This document shows, one piece after another, positions 26,501 to 33,382 of a stretch of 33,382 bases of DNA (positions within the stretch are counted from its first letter, which is position 1; each line of letters starts with the position of its first letter). Origin of the DNA: Thermoplasmata archaeon (GTDB lineage: Archaea; Thermoplasmatota; Thermoplasmata; GCA-020350865). The translations under genes were made by a program, and so were the position numbers. The notes beneath the pieces are model-generated. The model worked only from the letters and a program-made list of their open reading frames with translations. It searched no databases and was not told the DNA's origin. The DNA is taken from the NCBI GenBank assembly GCA_020348445.1, contig CP070751.1:3282700-3316081 (forward strand). Reading direction: 5' to 3'.

Positions 26501-29500
26501 AAATTTAAAGAATCAAAATCCCCGTTACCATCATAGAGCGTAACGTTCACCCAAATGCTGCCCACATCTGCTACCTGGGGAATACCCGAAAGAACACCTG
26601 TTACGGGATCAATAGAAATCCAAGAGGCATTTGTTTCATATGTCCAATGGGAATTTCCTTCTCCTTCATCATCCCCTTCAAAATCGAATATGTATTGCTG
26701 GTTCTCATATGCCCATTGAATTGGTGATGTTGAAATTATCTGCGGCGGTGAATTGGCAACTGTAAGTATGAAATAAGACCAATCAAGACCACCATCATTG
26801 TCACTTACTGAGACATTTACCCAAAACCAGCCAACATCTCCGTTGTCAGGTGTGCCGTTGAGATATCCGCTGTTTTTATCAAGGGTAAGCCAGGATGCAT
26901 TGGTATCCAATACCCAAACGCAGTTGTCGCCATCTGCATCTGAGTGTAAGTATTGTATTGAGTACAACAAATCCTCATCAGCATTTGTAACATCAGATGT
27001 CAATATCTGCGGCGCTAGATTCGAAACCTGTGGAAGGAAAAACTCGCCGGTCTCTCCCCAATCCCCGTCTATATCACTTGCTGCAAAATGATGGGTATAG
27101 TATCCTTTTGTCAGGCCTGAAATAATAAAATAGTACAGTTTTCCATCAGAGTAAATTGTATCACTTGGATCAAGCTCCATCATTATATGTGGGCCTGGAT
27201 TTGAAGGGCCTGTAAGGTTCATTGTGACCTGATTTGGCATGTCATCATCCAAATCAATGTAATTTACTGTGAAGTTGAAGGAGGTGGTGATATTTCCGAA
27301 AGTGGGGGTGACTTGAGCCATTGTTAGCTCGGGTGGGTTGTTGGCGACATTTAAGGTTTGCGGGACAGTGGAGATCCAATCCTCCCCGTCAAATACTGTA
27401 AAGAAATAGGTGTAGGAGCCCTTTCCCAGGATCAGGTTTAGGTAATAATCCTTTCCATCCCAATACGTTGTGTCTGAGGTGTCAAGCTCCAATAACGATT
27501 GATTGTCGGATACCGGTCCTGTGACTGTAAGGCCTATCCATGCTGGGAAATCCCCATCTTTGTCAAGGTAGTCCACAGTGAAGTTAAATGAAGTTTCACC
27601 CTTGCCAGTTGAGGGAGAGACAGAGGGGTATCTGAGTTCTGGGGGATTGTTATTCACTATAAACCCTACAAAGGATGTTGAATTCCAGATTATACCGTCG
27701 TATGCAACAAAGCGGTATTGGTACAGGCCTTTGGGCAATGTAAGGTTGAGGAAAAACCACTTTCCGTCGGTCATATCAAAATCACTGGGATCGAGTTCGT
27801 TCATTGTGAGGTTGTAATCTCCAGCTCCTCTAATGGTGATCTTTAATGGTGCAGGATAATCGTCGTCCGAATCAAGATACATGACAGAGAAATTGAACCA
27901 TCCTCCGCCAAAACTCCCTGCCTCGTTTGTGTAACCTGGGGAGATAAATTGCGGTGGGTTATTTGTGTAATAGATCAAAGAAAATCCCAAAAGCGTGGGT
28001 GTCACTGATGTGTCTGCTGTTAAGAATTCGGCTTTGAATCTTATAGTTCCTGAGGAGGTGTCAACAGATCTCATATCACCACCGGGATCAACAGGAGACC
28101 AACTTCCACCCGAGTTCAAGGAGTACCAGAATACTATGGTCTGTAAATTCAGGATGCTGTCAATGTACAACTGGCCCCAACTCGCCACTGCGGCTGGAAC
28201 AAAATCGTTCTTCATGTATAGGGTGCCGTTTTTTGAATAGTAACTGTACAATATGTTTACATCTGAAAGTACAGGAGTGTTGCTTGAGTTGGTTGTTATC
28301 AATATTGCTCGATATTGAATATACTGATTGCTTGCCGATGTAATGGCTTCTCCTGTAGAAACGGTATATGCGCTTGACCAAGGGCCCCATGAGGAGTTGT
28401 CATGCGAAGTCCTTGTTTGAATGATTATTCTTGTTCCTGGATCTAAAGTTGAGCTCCAGCTTATTTCTTCCCAGTTAGCTTTGGTCCCTGCATCAAAACC
28501 AATTGAAATGTATTCCCCCCTGCTCTCATTTCCCAGGCCTCCAACTGAAAAGTTGTCATAACCCACACTAAGTTCCACACCAAATTCGGTTTCAATGATC
28601 AATCGAAGTCTAAGAGAGATATTGTAGAAACCTCTTTTTAATATCCATTCACTGATGTCCACGGTCTCAGGGGTCCAGGATGATGAGGTGTCCGCGTCTA
28701 AACTCCATATCACAGTATCGTTGATGGCTATGCTCATCTCGGCATTTGAAACGTTTTTTGCGATCTCCACAACTCTATCGAACGTGAGATTTGTTCTTTC
28801 GAAGATAATGGTCACATCGTATAACGTTGGGGTTATAGCGGGGGAGGGGGTCTGCAGGTGGGCGCGGTATTGAATGTATCTGCCGGGTCCCGAAATTATT
28901 GCATCTCCAGGCTGCGAGTAGTTACCGCTCCAACCTCCCCACGTAATATTATCCAAGGAGGTTCTTGTCTCGATGGCAATGGTGCCGCCTGGCGGTGTTT
29001 CACCGTTCCAGTTTATGTTCCCCCAGGAGTTCATAACTTTTTCTGCATCAAAGACCTGGGATGTGAAATTGCCGTAGATTTCGTAATTGGGAAGCTTCCA
29101 TTGGATCTTAAGTTCCGGCCTCTGACCTTCGGCGCCGTTATCACTTGTGAATTCCAACCACCTGCTTGCACTCTCATCTGTATCATTTAAAAGCAAACCA
29201 TAATTCGGTTCACCGTCCACCCATTCCTGAACAAGGGTTGTGATGTTAAAACTATGAAATACATTTGATTCAGTTAGGTATACAGTTGATAAATTATATG
29301 GTGTGGGATCATATTCTCCACCCTTATCCCAAGGTATGGTGGGATCGGTATCTGCATTATCCCAGGTTGCACCATCAGTGGCTAACTCACTATTCTGTAT
29401 ACCTTCATCCCACTCTTTGGTTACCTTATAAACAGCCACTGGTACATCATCTGTATTCACCTGCTGCACCCACAAATCCAACACAGCGCTGCTGATAATC

Positions 29501-30822
29501 GCGCCATTGGGTATTTTACTTATGTTGAAGCGTAATAGACTTCTGGTGATGCTGGTTAGATCTGTCCCTCCAACCCAGAGTTCCGGTGAGATACCATAAT
29601 TGTTTTCATTAAAAAAGGAATATATCCAGGTTCCATTTCCCCCTGTCTCATTTGCATACAACGTTGTTTGTCCAGTCACAAAAGAACCTGCATAATCCAA
29701 AACCACACTGTCAGGTTGTAAAGTGAAGTTCACTTTGTTACTCCCCATATTCTTTAGGAAGTCTTCATACAATGTATCGTTAAAACCTGTGGTGTTTAGT
29801 ACCTCGAAGGTCTGGTTTATATATGCAGTCTCGTCAAATATTTCAGTTGTCACCTCAAGCCATATCTGATCCCATTCCACATATCCATCAGGCCCTGAAT
29901 CATCAGGATTAATAAATCTCACTCTGAGATTCTGAACATCTGACCACGTCCAAGAAGAGAAGGCGCTGGTGATATCATGAGATTGATTATCCCAACCTGT
30001 ATTATCAAGGGGAATTATCGATGTGTTGATAAAGGTGTTTGACTCATCCTCGTATTGGAGTGACGAGTTTCCACTTGATCCATCACCTCCATCGTATTGA
30101 CCCCCTTCAACCCTGTGAGTTCCCCACAGCACAACACTAACAATATTACCAGTTCTGCCCGTGATGTCAAATCCTGTAATCTCCAGGTATTGATCCCTTT
30201 CAACCTGCCACCACTTGAGGTCATTAAAGCCCAAAAGAGCATCAACTAAATCAATTGCGGAACTGCCTCCATTGTTACCATTTGAAACACCACTAGATAC
30301 ATTCTGCCTTCCAAAAATCCGCGGATTGGAAATGGAGTAATGAGACAGTTTACCATATTCGCTGCCTAAAATCCATTCTGAGGTGATGTCATTGCTGCTG
30401 TCGAAGCTCCAGTTTGCACTTGTGATAAATTCTCCATTTTTTATCAGGTTTGCCCCCGGTCCAGGTGATGTAGATATCAGCATTAGATCCCCCGGAGAAG
30501 TTGTCGTGTCAATATTGAAAATGGTGGACCCTGTTTCAAACTCGGATTGTGTGGTTTGATTCCACCAAAAGGAATGAATTGTGAGATTGCACTCCCCGTT
30601 TTCCATGGTCAGATTATAAAGATCATAAAAATCCGAATTATTTAAGGGCCAATCTGCGGTAAAAGTACCATTAAGGTTATCGGTGACTATTGGCTCAGAA
30701 TTCGCAGGATAAGAATTAATCAAGCAACCAATAATAAATACAAATACAATTAATATATTTATTATGATTGAAGTAGAAGGAGGTTCCCTTTTAATTCCAA
30801 CATTTTTTCCTTTCGTTCTCAT
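23563..30822 (-). CDS. giant (~2420 aa) single-pass cell-surface protein: DNRLRE-like, Ig/cadherin-like and PKD domains, TM helix, cytoplasmic roadblock/longin-like domain
   Basis: Signal-like N-terminus; RSLLRFNISKIPNGAIISSAVLDL (DNRLRE-like); repeated NNPPEL..FNFTV.Y.D.D.D units; WLTLDKNSGYLNGTP putative-Ig repeats; YTWYFGDG PKD; TM FIWLWVFLAFILGVLGVFVY; then EEAFLVNNAG..ISAMLTAVQEFVKDSF. ATG 30822 after ggtg (track uses TTG 30840). Confidence 0.88.
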   Translation of the reverse strand: MRTKGKNVGIKREPPSTSIIINILIVFVFIIGCLINSYPANSEPIVTDNLNGTFTADWPLNNSDFYDLYNLTMENGECNLTIHSFWWNQTTQSEFETGSTIFNIDTTTSPGDLMLISTSPGPGANLIKNGEFITSANWSFDSSNDITSEWILGSEYGKLSHYSISNPRIFGRQNVSSGVSNGNNGGSSAIDLVDALLGFNDLKWWQVERDQYLEITGFDITGRTGNIVSVVLWGTHRVEGGQYDGGDGSSGNSSLQYEDESNTFINTSIIPLDNTGWDNQSHDITSAFSSWTWSDVQNLRVRFINPDDSGPDGYVEWDQIWLEVTTEIFDETAYINQTFEVLNTTGFNDTLYEDFLKNMGSNKVNFTLQPDSVVLDYAGSFVTGQTTLYANETGGNGTWIYSFFNENNYGISPELWVGGTDLTSITRSLLRFNISKIPNGAIISSAVLDLWVQQVNTDDVPVAVYKVTKEWDEGIQNSELATDGATWDNADTDPTIPWDKGGEYDPTPYNLSTVYLTESNVFHSFNITTLVQEWVDGEPNYGLLLNDTDESASRWLEFTSDNGAEGQRPELKIQWKLPNYEIYGNFTSQVFDAEKVMNSWGNINWNGETPPGGTIAIETRTSLDNITWGGWSGNYSQPGDAIISGPGRYIQYRAHLQTPSPAITPTLYDVTIIFERTNLTFDRVVEIAKNVSNAEMSIAINDTVIWSLDADTSSSWTPETVDISEWILKRGFYNISLRLRLIIETEFGVELSVGYDNFSVGGLGNESRGEYISIGFDAGTKANWEEISWSSTLDPGTRIIIQTRTSHDNSSWGPWSSAYTVSTGEAITSASNQYIQYRAILITTNSSNTPVLSDVNILYSYYSKNGTLYMKNDFVPAAVASWGQLYIDSILNLQTIVFWYSLNSGGSWSPVDPGGDMRSVDTSSGTIRFKAEFLTADTSVTPTLLGFSLIYYTNNPPQFISPGYTNEAGSFGGGWFNFSVMYLDSDDDYPAPLKITIRGAGDYNLTMNELDPSDFDMTDGKWFFLNLTLPKGLYQYRFVAYDGIIWNSTSFVGFIVNNNPPELRYPSVSPSTGKGETSFNFTVDYLDKDGDFPAWIGLTVTGPVSDNQSLLELDTSDTTYWDGKDYYLNLILGKGSYTYFFTVFDGEDWISTVPQTLNVANNPPELTMAQVTPTFGNITTSFNFTVNYIDLDDDMPNQVTMNLTGPSNPGPHIMMELDPSDTIYSDGKLYYFIISGLTKGYYTHHFAASDIDGDWGETGEFFLPQVSNLAPQILTSDVTNADEDLLYSIQYLHSDADGDNCVWVLDTNASWLTLDKNSGYLNGTPDNGDVGWFWVNVSVSDNDGGLDWSYFILTVANSPPQIISTSPIQWAYENQQYIFDFEGDDEGEGNSHWTYETNASWISIDPVTGVLSGIPQVADVGSIWVNVTLYDGNGDFDSLNFSITVNDTSAPIADAGADDTIDEDTTYIFDGSGSQDNSGQITNYTWYFGDGEVGYGPTPQHIYTNMGTYMVVLVVRDPSGNEGYDAMELTVNNPSPVADAGSDLAANEGETVFFDASGSSDTPSDAPNLVYLWDFDNDTQFDDGVGVQTSYIWMDEGIFQVNLKVVDDNGDFGIATINVTVTNLPPSVDLNGPYSGLEGEKIYFFATASDSGNDVLWIRWDWDNDGQNDTDWTTQPYTNHTWALFGTYTVRVQVWDGDDGFNEDTASVQVIRPNQPPMILGVGGRYVHFDYPYLLDLTPYVYDPDTPINDLIVTTDSPYIEVNGLILTLNYPEGMVGKTDVVIITVSDGKSQDNDTFTVSITDNYPPESTGSIPPVNFDEGETLEDAVDLDNYFTDKDNDPLSYHFIGNVHVRPVLNSSTGFVSFSADPNWYGIENIIVRAYDPNGAFTEQVVNVTVNSVNFEPTIEGIQDVYVRLNSPWELLVLNPIYVWDDENILDLNLYTNSSFVTLSPTREGVLVFYYFDSLIETEIVKISVNDGEFTASIDVTVHISSDNWPPYIKDYSYPSTVRFDEDTELLNHFNLNDYFADNVTDTLTFTQIVESSYVFVTINTEGLVSFSSSQNWFGITSVDFRAQDTSGAWASFSIEVIVDSVNDVPEIRQVITYLQINENETWIIDLDDYFFDVEDGTNLTFSCNMPEIIIDPVTHEARWERDEKTLLSGVVFTASDGEANISMDPIDISVIKPVVKPESVKEPEPFIWLWVFLAFILGVLGVFVYREIRYRFRVEEAFLVNNAGILMTHLSRGESKMALDVELISAMLTAVQEFVKDSFSKGETDSDVIVDKKKSLEKLEFGEFHLVLEQGKYSFLCTVISGYVNKRLRKRMRIVLEEFETEYGDILHDWDGVMETFEKAQSILAKVFKKGTKVEEMTTSIGRMREGDEGVTQITYGETEDDEQVLDYDDFMAEDESPSDENPPPSA

Positions 30823-30991
30823 TTCACACCACTGACTCAAGTAAACGAAAAGAGTTTTGGGTATAAATTATTAACTAAAGAAAATCATGAAATATCAAAA
30901 AAAAATTAATGAAGCATATGCTACGCTCAATTTACATATGACTGGATTATTTGTAGTATTTACCTGTAGACTCGCCCTTAATCCGATATAT

Positions 30992-31383: not shown

Positions 31384-32376
31384 ATGGCGGAAGGGAAATC
31401 CATCGTGCACAATTGTCCATTATGCGGGAATTCACTGGACTTTATCGAGAAGGATAATGCCTGGTACTGTAAATTCTGCAAGGATTATAGGGATGTAGAA
31501 AACAAAGCCGACGCCAAGGAAGTGCAACCTTCAGTTGTTCCATCCTCTACCGAGGCAACACAAAGAAGATGCTTTATCTGCCTGGGTTTAATTACAGATG
31601 AAAACGAATCCTTTGAATGCGAATGCGGGAGCATATCGCACGATGATTGCATAAAGGAAGTGGGGAATTGCTCGGTATGTAAAATAAAATATACTCCAGA
31701 AGATTTTCTGAAACTAAAGGATTTTGTTTATTTGATAAAAAAGGGAAAATCCATGCTTAACAAGAATAGATACAAGAATGCTCAGCTTTGGTTTAGTAGG
31801 GCATTGAAGATCAGAGGTAACAGTACATATGCGTGGAATTGTAAGGGGATGGCTTATGCAGAGAATTGCCAATTCGAGGAAGCCCTACAATGTTATGACA
31901 AGGCAATAGAACTGAAAAAGAACCATGAGGCATATTATAACAAGGCTATAACCCTGCTGAAAATGAAATCATTTAAAGAGAGCCTTGAATGTGTAAATAC
32001 AGCCATCTCATTAAATCGAGATGATGCCAATTCTTGGTATGTAAAGGGTTTGGCACTTTCAAAGATGAGGATGCCGAGAATAGCAATAAAATGTTATGAT
32101 AAGGCCCTTGATCTGGTTCCTGAAAACGGTCTTTTTTGGTACGCCAAGGGTAAAGCCTTAATTGAAATCGATAGATCCGATCCCGCCCTTGATTGTTTTG
32201 AATCTGCCTTGGAAATAGATCCCAAGGATATTAATGCATTGTTCGAGAAGGGAAGACTGCTTGCAAGAATAAATAGGATTGATGAGGCAAAGGCAACCTT
32301 CGACGAAGTTCTTAAATGGGAGCCTGAGCATACAGGTGCAATAAGAGAAAAGGAAAAGGCACTTGCGCGAGGGTAG
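31384..32376 (+). CDS. TPR-repeat protein with two N-terminal zinc-binding modules
   Basis: CPLC...CKFC ribbon; CFIC...CEC...H..C...C..C module; about 6 TPRs (AWNCKG.AY, ALQCYDKAIEL, WYVKGLAL, AL.CF..ALEIDP). Confidence 0.9.
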   Translation: MAEGKSIVHNCPLCGNSLDFIEKDNAWYCKFCKDYRDVENKADAKEVQPSVVPSSTEATQRRCFICLGLITDENESFECECGSISHDDCIKEVGNCSVCKIKYTPEDFLKLKDFVYLIKKGKSMLNKNRYKNAQLWFSRALKIRGNSTYAWNCKGMAYAENCQFEEALQCYDKAIELKKNHEAYYNKAITLLKMKSFKESLECVNTAISLNRDDANSWYVKGLALSKMRMPRIAIKCYDKALDLVPENGLFWYAKGKALIEIDRSDPALDCFESALEIDPKDINALFEKGRLLARINRIDEAKATFDEVLKWEPEHTGAIREKEKALARG

Positions 32377-32458
32377 CCACATTTGTAGTGAGCTTTGGTC
32401 AACTCTAGACCTTGACAAACCTGCGGTTTGTCTTCGGAGCAAACTTGGCTACCCTCTC
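32367..32458. repeat. palindromic element whose ends copy the 5' end of the adjacent tRNA-Leu
   Basis: gcgagggtagcca (32367-32379) equals tRNA nt 1-13; cttggctaccctc (32444-32456) is the reverse complement of tRNA nt 3-15; internal hairpin gacaaacc-tgc-ggtttgtc (32414-32432). Confidence 0.75.
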
Positions 32459-32477
32459 AGCTTACAATCGCTTTAAT

Positions 32478-32562
32478 GCGAGGGTAGCCAAGCCTGGTCA
32501 ACGGCGCAGGATTCAGGGTCCTGTCTCGAAGGAGTTCTTGGGTTCGAATCCCATCCCTCGCA
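32478..32562 (+). tRNA. tRNA-Leu (anticodon CAG)
   Basis: Acceptor GCGAGGG/CCCTCGC + discriminator A; D-arm GCC/GGC; anticodon stem CAGGA/TCCTG with loop TTCAGGG; variable arm CTC-GAAG-GAG; T-loop TTCGAAT; no intron; CCA not encoded. Confidence 0.95.
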
Positions 32563-32591
32563 CTTTTAATTTTATATTAATTTGATACAGT

Positions 32592-32819
32592 GCGAGGGCT
32601 TTGTGTCAGAGTTATACTGGGATAACAATTACTTCTTAAGCTCGGACACCCATCCCTCGCCCTAAGCTTTAGAATTCTTGAAATCGGGAATGCTATATAT
32701 TAGAATATTTTGCATCCAAGTTATCCTGGGTTATCGAATATGAACAGATGGAATTTAAGATGCCCTATTTATTGTCCACTTTATTATAAAAGAGTGGTTG
32801 GACACACCCATCCCTCGCA
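32592..32819 (+). repeat. direct repeats of the tRNA-Leu 3' end (att-like scars or tRNA-mimic hairpins)
   Basis: cccatccctcgc(a) at 32649-32660 and 32807-32819 equals tRNA 32550-32562, each preceded by ggacac; gcgaggg at 32592-32598; shared internal motif gttat(a/c)ctggg at 32611 and ~32720. Confidence 0.8.
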
Positions 32820-32857
32820 TCAGAACTTTTAAAAATTTAAAATGAATTACACCGAGC

Positions 32858-33382
32858 ATGAAAGTCATAAGAAGCGTTTCCTTTGATACATCCTTTCTTT
32901 TAAAGGACGATCCCGAAGTTGATAAGATCATCAAGGGATTGAAGCGTGATGGAATCGATTGCTTTGTAACATCCACTGTGATTTCTGAGCTGGAGCAGCT
33001 CAAAACCTGGGGTAGAATAGATGAACATGCATATAAAAAAGCCATGTCCAGGTTAAAACGTGTAGACGCGAAGATCATCGATTTTAAAAACAGATTCTTA
33101 TCCTCAGAGATAGGCAGTCAATGTATCGCCTCCATGAAGACCCATCTCGGTGCCGAGCCAAAGGATATCAAAAACGACTGCAGTATCCTAATTACGGGCC
33201 TTAAAAATGGAGTTGATCTCTTTCTTTCCGAGGATTTCCACTTTACCTCGAGTTTAACAGAAGAGGTCTTAGAGGAAGTAACCAATAAAGCATGTTTGGA
33301 ATATCATCAAATGTGTGGTGAGGAATTATATTCGGTCAATACTGAAAACTTTTTGAAGGTGTACAAGGAGGGAAAGATCGAT
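32858..33382 (+). CDS. PIN-domain (VapC-like) protein, truncated by the window end; missing from the ORF track
   Basis: Frame open for 175 codons to the edge: MKVIRSVSFDTSFLL...FVTSTVISELE...KNDCSILITG...LFLSEDFHF, with the four PIN-type acidic positions. Confidence 0.8.
   Translation, partial: MKVIRSVSFDTSFLLKDDPEVDKIIKGLKRDGIDCFVTSTVISELEQLKTWGRIDEHAYKKAMSRLKRVDAKIIDFKNRFLSSEIGSQCIASMKTHLGAEPKDIKNDCSILITGLKNGVDLFLSEDFHFTSSLTEEVLEEVTNKACLEYHQMCGEELYSVNTENFLKVYKEGKID

Follow-up and report, generated by a model that had tools for sequence, protein, structure and literature searches.

What are the fragments of tRNA sequence that lie on both sides of the tRNA-Leu(CAG) gene in an uncultured Thermoplasmata archaeon from sediment, and how did they come to be there? 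Repeats downstream of tRNA genes, known since 1978, are still unexplained. The phenomenon described here is an extreme and regular one, in that both ends of most tRNA genes carry direct and inverted copies of the gene end around shared cores. The nearest named relatives of the host carry the label Methanomassiliicoccales, and the window, by which we mean the whole stretch of 33,382 nucleotides that was analyzed, contains tRNA-Leu(CAG) as the only tRNA gene reported by ARAGORN (32478-32563). A sequence-only reading of this DNA had described three elements around the gene, A upstream and B and C downstream, as an array of tRNA mimics, and had offered two explanations for them: noncoding RNAs derived from the tRNA that RNase P and RNase Z could excise, or a tRNA-targeting family resembling MITEs (miniature transposable elements with inverted repeats).

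Copies of both tRNA ends surround tRNA-Leu(CAG)

The gene matches the Rfam model RF00005 with 45 bits over 32478-32562. In the interval 32200-33000 the tRNA is the single Rfam family match, even at E<=1, and at the gathering threshold Rfam returns no match in the full window, the tRNA itself included. The observation that the interiors of the elements are not tRNA cloverleaves is upheld, as ARAGORN and Rfam (E<=1) recognize only the real tRNA.

What the flanks do contain are copies of the two gene ends. The 13-mer formed by tRNA positions 1-13 is found at 32367-32379 as well as at 32478-32490, and its reverse complement, with one mismatch, at 32446-32458. Three matches compare with 0.01 expected, and 0 of 100 shuffles reached three. 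A 12-mer from the tRNA's 3' end is similarly found at 32550, 32649 and 32807 (three matches versus 0.11 expected; 0 of 100 shuffles), and the copies of tRNA positions 61-72 occupy 32649-32660 and 32807-32818. The coordinates of the resulting features are collected in Table 1. Local mis-assembly, which the earlier reading had named as a way in which it might fail, is not indicated. Logan contigs that were assembled independently from the two source runs cover 31900-32504 and 32533-33382 and, to the left as well as to the right of the tRNA, are identical to the window.

Table 1. Features around tRNA-Leu(CAG), in window coordinates
Feature	Position	Strand	Remark
Element A (5' module), Y copy: direct copy of tRNA positions 1-13	32367..32379	+	
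Element A interior: degenerate inner hairpin P1, then conserved hairpin P2 (32414-32432) and conserved 3' flank	32380..32444	+	
Element A, Y': inverted copy of tRNA positions 3-13	32445..32456	+	
21-nt spacer from module to tRNA +1; TCGC-containing motif common to other tRNA-Leu loci	32457..32477	+	
tRNA-Leu(CAG), including the base after the discriminator	32478..32563	+	
3' module spacer S: 25 nt, AT-rich, nearly palindromic, TATA-like	32564..32588	+	Conserved behind many tRNAs of the genome
Element B (3' module), X': inverted copy covering the 3' strand of the acceptor, the discriminator and the two gene bases that follow	32589..32598	+	
Element B core hairpin: conserved stem of the family, loop ends GTTAT and CTTAAG	32603..32649	+	
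Element B, X: direct copy of tRNA positions 61-72	32649..32661	+	
Tail behind B, common to the four tRNA-Leu loci of the genome; further unit	32662..32694	+	
Element C: right half of core stem and third direct copy of the tRNA 3' end	32796..32819	+	

Element A belongs to a family of 5' modules

Element A (32367-32458) folds with -42 kcal/mol, and with a z of -5.2 it is a strong hairpin. Its first 13 nucleotides (32367-32379) are an exact copy of tRNA positions 1-13 and it closes with an 11-bp stem, as was noticed from the letters alone. In this outer stem Y' pairs with 32369-32379, and the alternative partner of Y' is the tRNA's own 5' end. A further observation, that A contains a D-loop word, is correct only as far as the word goes. 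Although TGGTCAAC is present both in A (at 32396) and in the D-loop of the tRNA (at 32495), it is absent from 11 homologous units of relatives, in which its place is occupied by the 3' strand of the inner hairpin. The word in A is therefore not a copied D-loop.

In units of this family tRNA positions 1 to 13-19 are copied directly at the start; one or two inner hairpins follow, then the inverted copy and a spacer of 17-21 nt that leads to the tRNA. We aligned twelve Leu-type units from loci of the genomes G000, G001, G002, G003 and G004. They have in common two conserved inner helices and an outer stem that fits the respective tRNA, and the element A of the window is a short member among them whose first hairpin has decayed. 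Across the alignment 93% of the cells are paired, versus 83% in shuffles and 39-57% with slid partners. The sequence-only reading had proposed a covariation analysis in relatives and had allowed that the elements might prove absent or unstructured there; folded 5' units are present in G001-G004, and the covariation score of the 5' units is 0.36 versus 0.17. The antisense strand of the 5' units folds slightly better than the sense strand (-48.4 versus -44.7 kcal/mol, p 0.005). However, G:U and A:C are about equally frequent at consensus pairs (12 and 13, respectively), and the antisense advantage is therefore probably an effect of composition.

Elements B and C belong to a family of 3' modules

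Element B (32589-32661), which folds with -27.6 kcal/mol (z -3.9), is a strong hairpin whose arms are copies of the tRNA 3' end, one direct and one inverted, and the observation made on it from the letters is upheld. Element C was only partly described correctly. The third copy of the 3' end is present at 32807, but C folds no better than shuffles (z -1.1) and therefore counts as a half-stem stub rather than as a hairpin. A tail motif that follows B is confined to tRNA-Leu loci.

Members of the 3' family start with a spacer of 24-25 nt that is AT-rich, almost palindromic and contains a TATA-like word, and they continue with an inverted copy, a core and a direct copy. The inverted copy X' begins 24-25 nt past the gene end and complements the last 8-10 bases of the gene plus 0-3 bases beyond it. 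The core is a hairpin of 42-43 nt that has a bulged G and in which the ends of the loop are conserved; the direct copy covers about tRNA positions 61-74. This layout (X, S, X', core, X, at 24- to 25-nt spacing) is found at about 15 tRNA loci, and the layout of the 5' modules is its mirror image. Where 3' units are arranged in tandem, the period is ~99 nt. In the case of tRNA-Ala it is the 3' strand to which the inverted arm is complementary at G3:U70, indicating that the arm is an inverted 3' end and not a copy of the 5' strand. In three cores the loop is flipped relative to the tRNA, and in a set of 48 cores the two strands fold alike (-22.6 versus -22.9 kcal/mol; G:U pairs 115 versus 93; p 0.83).

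The design recurs at most dispersed tRNA genes

When element A was compared with the genome by BLAST, a second site was detected directly upstream of another tRNA-Leu. Extending the search to other tRNA loci, as had been suggested, revealed the same design at three further tRNA-Leu loci, so that the full design is present at four of the six tRNA-Leu loci of the genome, with arms that follow the acceptor sequence of each tRNA. Exact 9-mer copies of a gene's own ends are found in the flanks of 33 of 46 dispersed tRNA genes, of all kinds, versus 1 of 65 for an internal 9-mer control. The elements are thus not Leu-specific tRNA mimics. In the dense tRNA array at 4.64 Mb, none of the 19 tRNAs has end copies.

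Cores behind unrelated tRNAs are 88-93% identical, and their arms are unrelated. The direct copies that flank units measure about 12-14 nt on the 3' side and up to 25 nt on the 5' side, and at one locus 12 nt of leader are part of the 25-nt direct repeat flanking the 5' module. Because the arms include bases beyond the gene end and leader sequence, and because the arm at tRNA-Ala matches the 3' strand, the template of the arms is the DNA of the gene and not the mature tRNA. Read outward from the gene, both families start with the target and a linker of 20-25 nt; the target then recurs in inverted orientation, a conserved hairpin core follows, and the target appears once more as a direct copy. 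At the 3' end the strand to be read outward is the top one and at the 5' end the bottom one, and the order of parts is the same for both families. We conclude with high confidence that elements A, B and C represent, at this locus, two families of small palindromic DNA modules that are lineage-specific, carry no gene and are situated just outside tRNA gene ends. A published description of such modules was not found in a literature search, nor was a prior description of the rebuilding of arms from the end of the module's own tRNA gene.

Modules are gained, lost and truncated between relatives

Orthologous tRNA-Leu(CAG) loci were recognized by the same upstream TPR gene. The number of upstream and downstream modules is one and one plus a stub in the window, two and one in G001, one and one in G004, and one and zero in G002. 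At tRNA-Leu(GAG) a 5' module is present in G000 and G004 and absent from G001 and G002. Whether or not a module is present, 13-15 nt separate the conserved promoter region from the first copy of the tRNA start, and this constancy fits an insertion placed precisely where the gene begins. Both arms follow a single T/C difference at tRNA position 12. In a contig of a relative, obtained in another study, position 32339 is joined to 32476, so that A is absent or replaced there, which we regard as a weak hint. Among 3' sites we did not find a clean pair, one empty and one filled. The one candidate for an empty site, the downstream flank of G002 compared with window positions 32661-32860, gave a local score of 25, which is not significant relative to shuffles (18 +/- 2.3, maximum 26).

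The 3' core family is present in the genus and, in diverged form, in a sister family (G005), and a similar spacer is found in G024. Modules of the 5' type are present in at least four additional families of the class, also outside the order. Other small and unrelated cassette types that are bounded by copies of tRNA 3' ends were seen in this genus, in G012 and in G024.

Comparison with known systems

The closest precedent in location is provided by the TLRs (tRNA-linked repeats) known from Escherichia coli (Egan and Landy 1978; Rudd 1999), for which PMC8144298 gives 22 copies at ten loci, mostly without known function. As portrayed there, TLRs are short non-coding units that lie directly behind tRNA genes (and, for TLRs, also rRNA genes), often serially, and each unit ends in a copy of the 3' end of the upstream gene, 18-19 bp in E. 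coli compared with 12-14 bp here. The modules additionally have counterparts on the 5' side, hairpin cores in common and the gene end in inverted copy, none of which figures in that portrayal of TLRs (PMC8144298). TLRs occupy ten loci, whereas the modules are found at most tRNA genes, and the likeness is one of design only, the present genome being archaeal.

A second resemblance is with the ends of IS200/IS605 elements. In these, a guide at the foot of a subterminal hairpin pairs with the cleavage site, which lies outside the element at the left end and inside it at the right end (PMC5934647, PMC3201880). IS608 chooses its target through DNA-DNA pairing between the target and a guide beside a hairpin, and IS608 engineered for longer pairing has been directed to 12- or 17-nt targets (PMC5934647). 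The modules likewise combine a guide-like arm with a hairpin, the order of parts being target, linker, complement, hairpin and target copy. However, the natural guides of IS200/IS605 are 4 nt long and identical in all copies, and two different end hairpins flank the cargo, whereas the modules have a single hairpin and arms of 9-13 nt that differ from locus to locus.

REP, BIME and REPIN sequences (PMC3333891, PMC3479197, PMC8266576) are high-copy, extragenic, gene-less hairpins, as the modules are, and the proposed mobilizer of REPs is a domesticated, vertically inherited Y1 gene, RAYT (TnpA-REP). A syntenic intact Y1 gene in the present genomes parallels RAYT, but REPs flank RAYT, whereas the modules do not flank the Y1 gene. 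REPs also have one sequence genome-wide and are not known to be tied to tRNA ends, whereas the arms of the modules are locus-specific. Given the locus-specific arms and a syntenic Y1 gene that has no adjoining modules, identity with REP/RAYT was rejected.

Integron attC sites are imperfect palindromes of 60-130 nt with bulged bases that are thought to act as folded single strands and that occur in arrays. The modules are also arrayed, imperfect palindromes of this size with bulged bases, but their outer arms are specific to the tRNA, conserved outer boxes are missing, the units of ~99 nt contain no ORF and no integron-type integrase was found, so that an assignment to attC was rejected.

Family 2 casposons insert in the 3'-distal part of Methanosarcina tRNA-Leu genes with a 14-bp target duplication, and tandem insertion is possible (PMC4779613). 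The direct copy described here is of similar extent, spanning tRNA positions 61-74 (~14 nt). Unlike casposons, the modules contain no genes and have no terminal inverted repeats, the two ends of a unit not being inverted repeats of each other. A casposon or mini-casposon was rejected because PF01867 (Cas1) is present in none of six module-bearing genomes (G000-G005) versus 8 of 25 others. An IS110-type element with a bridge RNA was likewise rejected, PF01548 not having been found in G001-G005.

The suggestion of a tRNA-targeting MITE-like family was right in that this is a repeat family with shared cores at tRNA gene ends. The modules do not, however, have the uniform terminal inverted repeats of MITEs, as their arms differ per tRNA although their cores are up to 93% alike, and BLAST of the elements against the genome found no parent IS element. 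With arms that change from tRNA to tRNA and no known parent, the modules are not classical MITEs. Taken as a family, they fit none of the known systems TLRs, IS200/IS605, REP/RAYT, attC and casposons.

Alternative explanations for the modules

We considered three rival explanations. One is that the modules are functional RNAs. The 5' modules would lie in the leader of the pre-tRNA and the 3' modules in its trailer or in small transcripts of their own that start from the TATA-like spacer, and the complement of the tRNA end together with its decoy copy would form a three-segment switch that gates folding of the tRNA or its processing by RNase P and tRNase Z, or the modules would be a source of small RNAs. 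The 5' module indeed lies between the conserved promoter region and the tRNA, in the presumed leader, its three helices covary and its design recurs across several families of the class, all of which makes an RNA role possible. Moreover, Y' can pair with either the Y copy or the tRNA's own 5' end, a TATA-like word is present in spacer S ~27 nt before the end of X', and the genome has an RNase P RNA. Yet the covariation is equally expected of DNA palindromes that are kept perfect by template switching, and several features are not those of a selected RNA: the presence, number and integrity of modules differ between orthologous loci of sister species, stubs and flipped loops exist, G:U is not in excess over A:C at consensus pairs, the 3' cores favor neither strand, and the arms copy bases outside the mature tRNA. 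We therefore consider a functional RNA unlikely, although it is the strongest of the three. The more specific proposal that RNase P and RNase Z excise tRNA-derived noncoding RNAs finds no support in interiors that are not derived from tRNA, in an inverted arm that passes the mature 3' end, in strands that fold alike or in copies that are gained, lost, truncated or flipped between close relatives.

The modules could instead be cis-acting DNA signals selected at tRNA genes, such as terminator or promoter units, protein-binding palindromes or barriers that shield neighbors from tRNA transcription. T-runs and a TATA-like palindrome in spacer S directly behind the tRNA are compatible with such a role, as is the confinement of modules to dispersed tRNA genes and their absence from the dense array. 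But signals of this kind offer no reason to copy each tRNA's end in both orientations, some orthologous genes have no modules, and the arrays and stubs resemble turnover rather than design, making the explanation improbable. Still less probable is that the copies are att scars, the leftover sites of repeated integration and excision of integrative elements that target tRNA genes. tRNA 3' ends are the classical att sites (PMC4779613), and direct copies of them bound several unrelated small cassette types in the genus, G012 and G024. Integration nevertheless leaves the inverted copies and the 5'-side modules unexplained, the units are 65-150 nt long and carry no genes, one conserved core recurs behind dozens of different tRNAs at a fixed spacing of 24-25 nt, and Phage_integrase has two matches in the whole genome, both weak. 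Scars of a tyrosine integrase were rejected on the same grounds, there being no gene between the repeats and inverted copies as well as 5' modules being present.

A mobile-DNA explanation and its candidate enzyme

Strand symmetry, stubs, flips, changes in copy number and arms that extend beyond the mature tRNA point to DNA palindromes rather than selected RNA structures. Our preferred reading, toward which we lean without firm commitment, is that the modules are gene-less insertion modules acting at the DNA level, with arms templated by the target, and not tRNA-derived RNAs. A DNA-level mobile origin thus appears somewhat favored, and the modules are most likely selfish or neutral. Under this explanation cores would spread among tRNA genes as DNA, leaving behind their arms, which would be set by the local gene. 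The arms might be set through base-pair-guided choice of the insertion site, as at the single-strand transposon ends of IS200/IS605. Alternatively or additionally, templated copying might set them, through target duplication and correction of imperfect palindromes, the arms being rewritten by template switching during that correction. Every insertion would recreate the target at its outer end, so that tandem arrays could form and the tRNA gene would be left intact. As the acceptor stem makes the two gene ends read alike on opposite strands, a guide scheme would lead to the targeting of both ends, and it would account for the fixed position and the perfect complementarity.

A Y1 (HUH) transposase is the leading candidate for the enzyme. 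Y1_Tnp genes are present in all six genomes that have the 3' family (G000-G005). An intact Y1 gene (G000 4215048-4215458), with the HUH motif and the catalytic Tyr, forms a pair with a decayed paralogue, and the synteny of this pair is conserved among G000, G001 and G003. Orthologues of the intact gene have 59-90% identity in the genus, 63% in G005 and 50% in G024. The phyletic link between Y1 and modules holds for the 3' family (G000-G005, G024) but fails for modules of the 5' type, which are present in G016, G020, G025 and G027, where no Y1_Tnp was found. No modules lie beside the syntenic Y1 pair. A resident IS200 is an unlikely parent, as the ends of IS200-type elements of the genome do not resemble the modules and BLAST of these ends matches no module. 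Two features that are usual for Y1 elements, a pair of unlike end hairpins and a strand bias, were not seen in the modules. A Y1 guide mechanism in particular is possible but doubtful.

A more far-reaching version, which we consider rather unlikely, is that the modules constitute a natural DNA-guided insertion system. A 9- to 13-nt guide complementary to the end of the module's own tRNA gene would direct re-insertion there. The acceptor stem, by its inverted symmetry, would permit this on one strand as well as on the other, and at a new tRNA the guide would be rewritten from the target. If so, the modules would be a self-retargeting counterpart of the engineered long-guide IS608 and would represent a new way for mobile DNA to colonize essential genes without breaking them. 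More generally, if the arms are DNA guides or are written by the target, they would embody a new and simple principle of programmable, non-destructive insertion and offer a natural model for the targeting of single-strand transposons. If they are instead RNA switches, they would add a new layer of control over tRNA maturation in archaea.

For the annotation of these Thermoplasmata, fragments of tRNA ends and arrays of hairpins are to be expected around tRNA genes. In the window, the final codons and the stop codon of the TPR ORF (Pfam) upstream of tRNA-Leu(CAG) come from the copy of the tRNA 5' end.

Module cores and arms away from called tRNA genes

The modules, gene-less hairpins outside tRNA gene ends whose arms copy the local gene end, share cores. 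G000, the genome containing the window, also has six "free" copies of a related core, whose flanks are constant and which has another hairpin upstream of it. None of these six copies has a tRNA gene at its site; one is located 250 nt upstream of tRNA-Leu(GAG). Two further G000 loci, 1269500-1270400 and 3594600-3595400, carry 3' modules with arms that are an end copy of a short sequence common to both. Neither a tRNA call nor an Rfam match was obtained for this short sequence, which may be a new small RNA gene or a piece of a tRNA.

About 19-25 tRNA genes are packed into 3 kb at G000 4640570-4643566, outside the window. In contrast to the dispersed tRNA genes, no gene of this dense array has an end-copy module, and the array may differ from the dispersed genes in its origin or mode of transcription.

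Coordinates of core copies, transposase-related features and protein genes
Feature	Location	Strand	Remarks
"Free" core copies	G000 395428, 2621044, 3219244, 3473529, 3486798, 4029788
Y1 transposase-like gene pair	G000 4214531-4215461	divergent	one intact (HUH + Tyr), one decayed
IS200-type element, copy 1	G000 2860309-2860969		661 bp; tnpA only
IS200-type element, copy 2	G000 3338969-3339629		identical to copy 1
TPR-repeat ORF	window 31384-32376
Giant ORF, 2425 aa	window 23563-30840	minus	directly upstream of TPR gene

The tRNA-Leu(CAG) gene and its upstream neighbors

The T-stem of tRNA-Leu(CAG) (window 32526-32562) has U at both positions 49 and 65, a U-U mismatch that is kept in all four of four species, and the T of position 65 is also found in B and C, the 3' module and stub of this gene. 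A search of the full window at the Rfam gathering threshold returned no matches, although a search limited to a shorter stretch gives the tRNA a score of 45 bits; the blank obtained over the full window with fast filters is therefore unreliable.

Upstream, the TPR-repeat ORF ends in element A, the 5' module, within its copy of the tRNA 5' end, as it also does in the related G001. The stop of the ORF lies 14-17 nt ahead of the 5'-end copy in G002 and G004. No obvious promoter remains for tRNA-Leu(CAG).

Transposase genes and interrupted tRNA genes

Y1 transposases of the HUH type are a candidate enzyme family for the modules. Synteny of the divergent Y1 pair is kept in three species, beside AbrB/PIN-like toxin-antitoxin genes, and the G002 orthologue contains an in-frame TAG. 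The second copy of the IS200-type element lies ~23 kb past the window's end.

At two loci in G012, another compared genome, tRNA-Leu genes for which ARAGORN makes no call are split in the T-loop by insertions of ~130 nt, behind which the 3' part of the tRNA is present once or twice.
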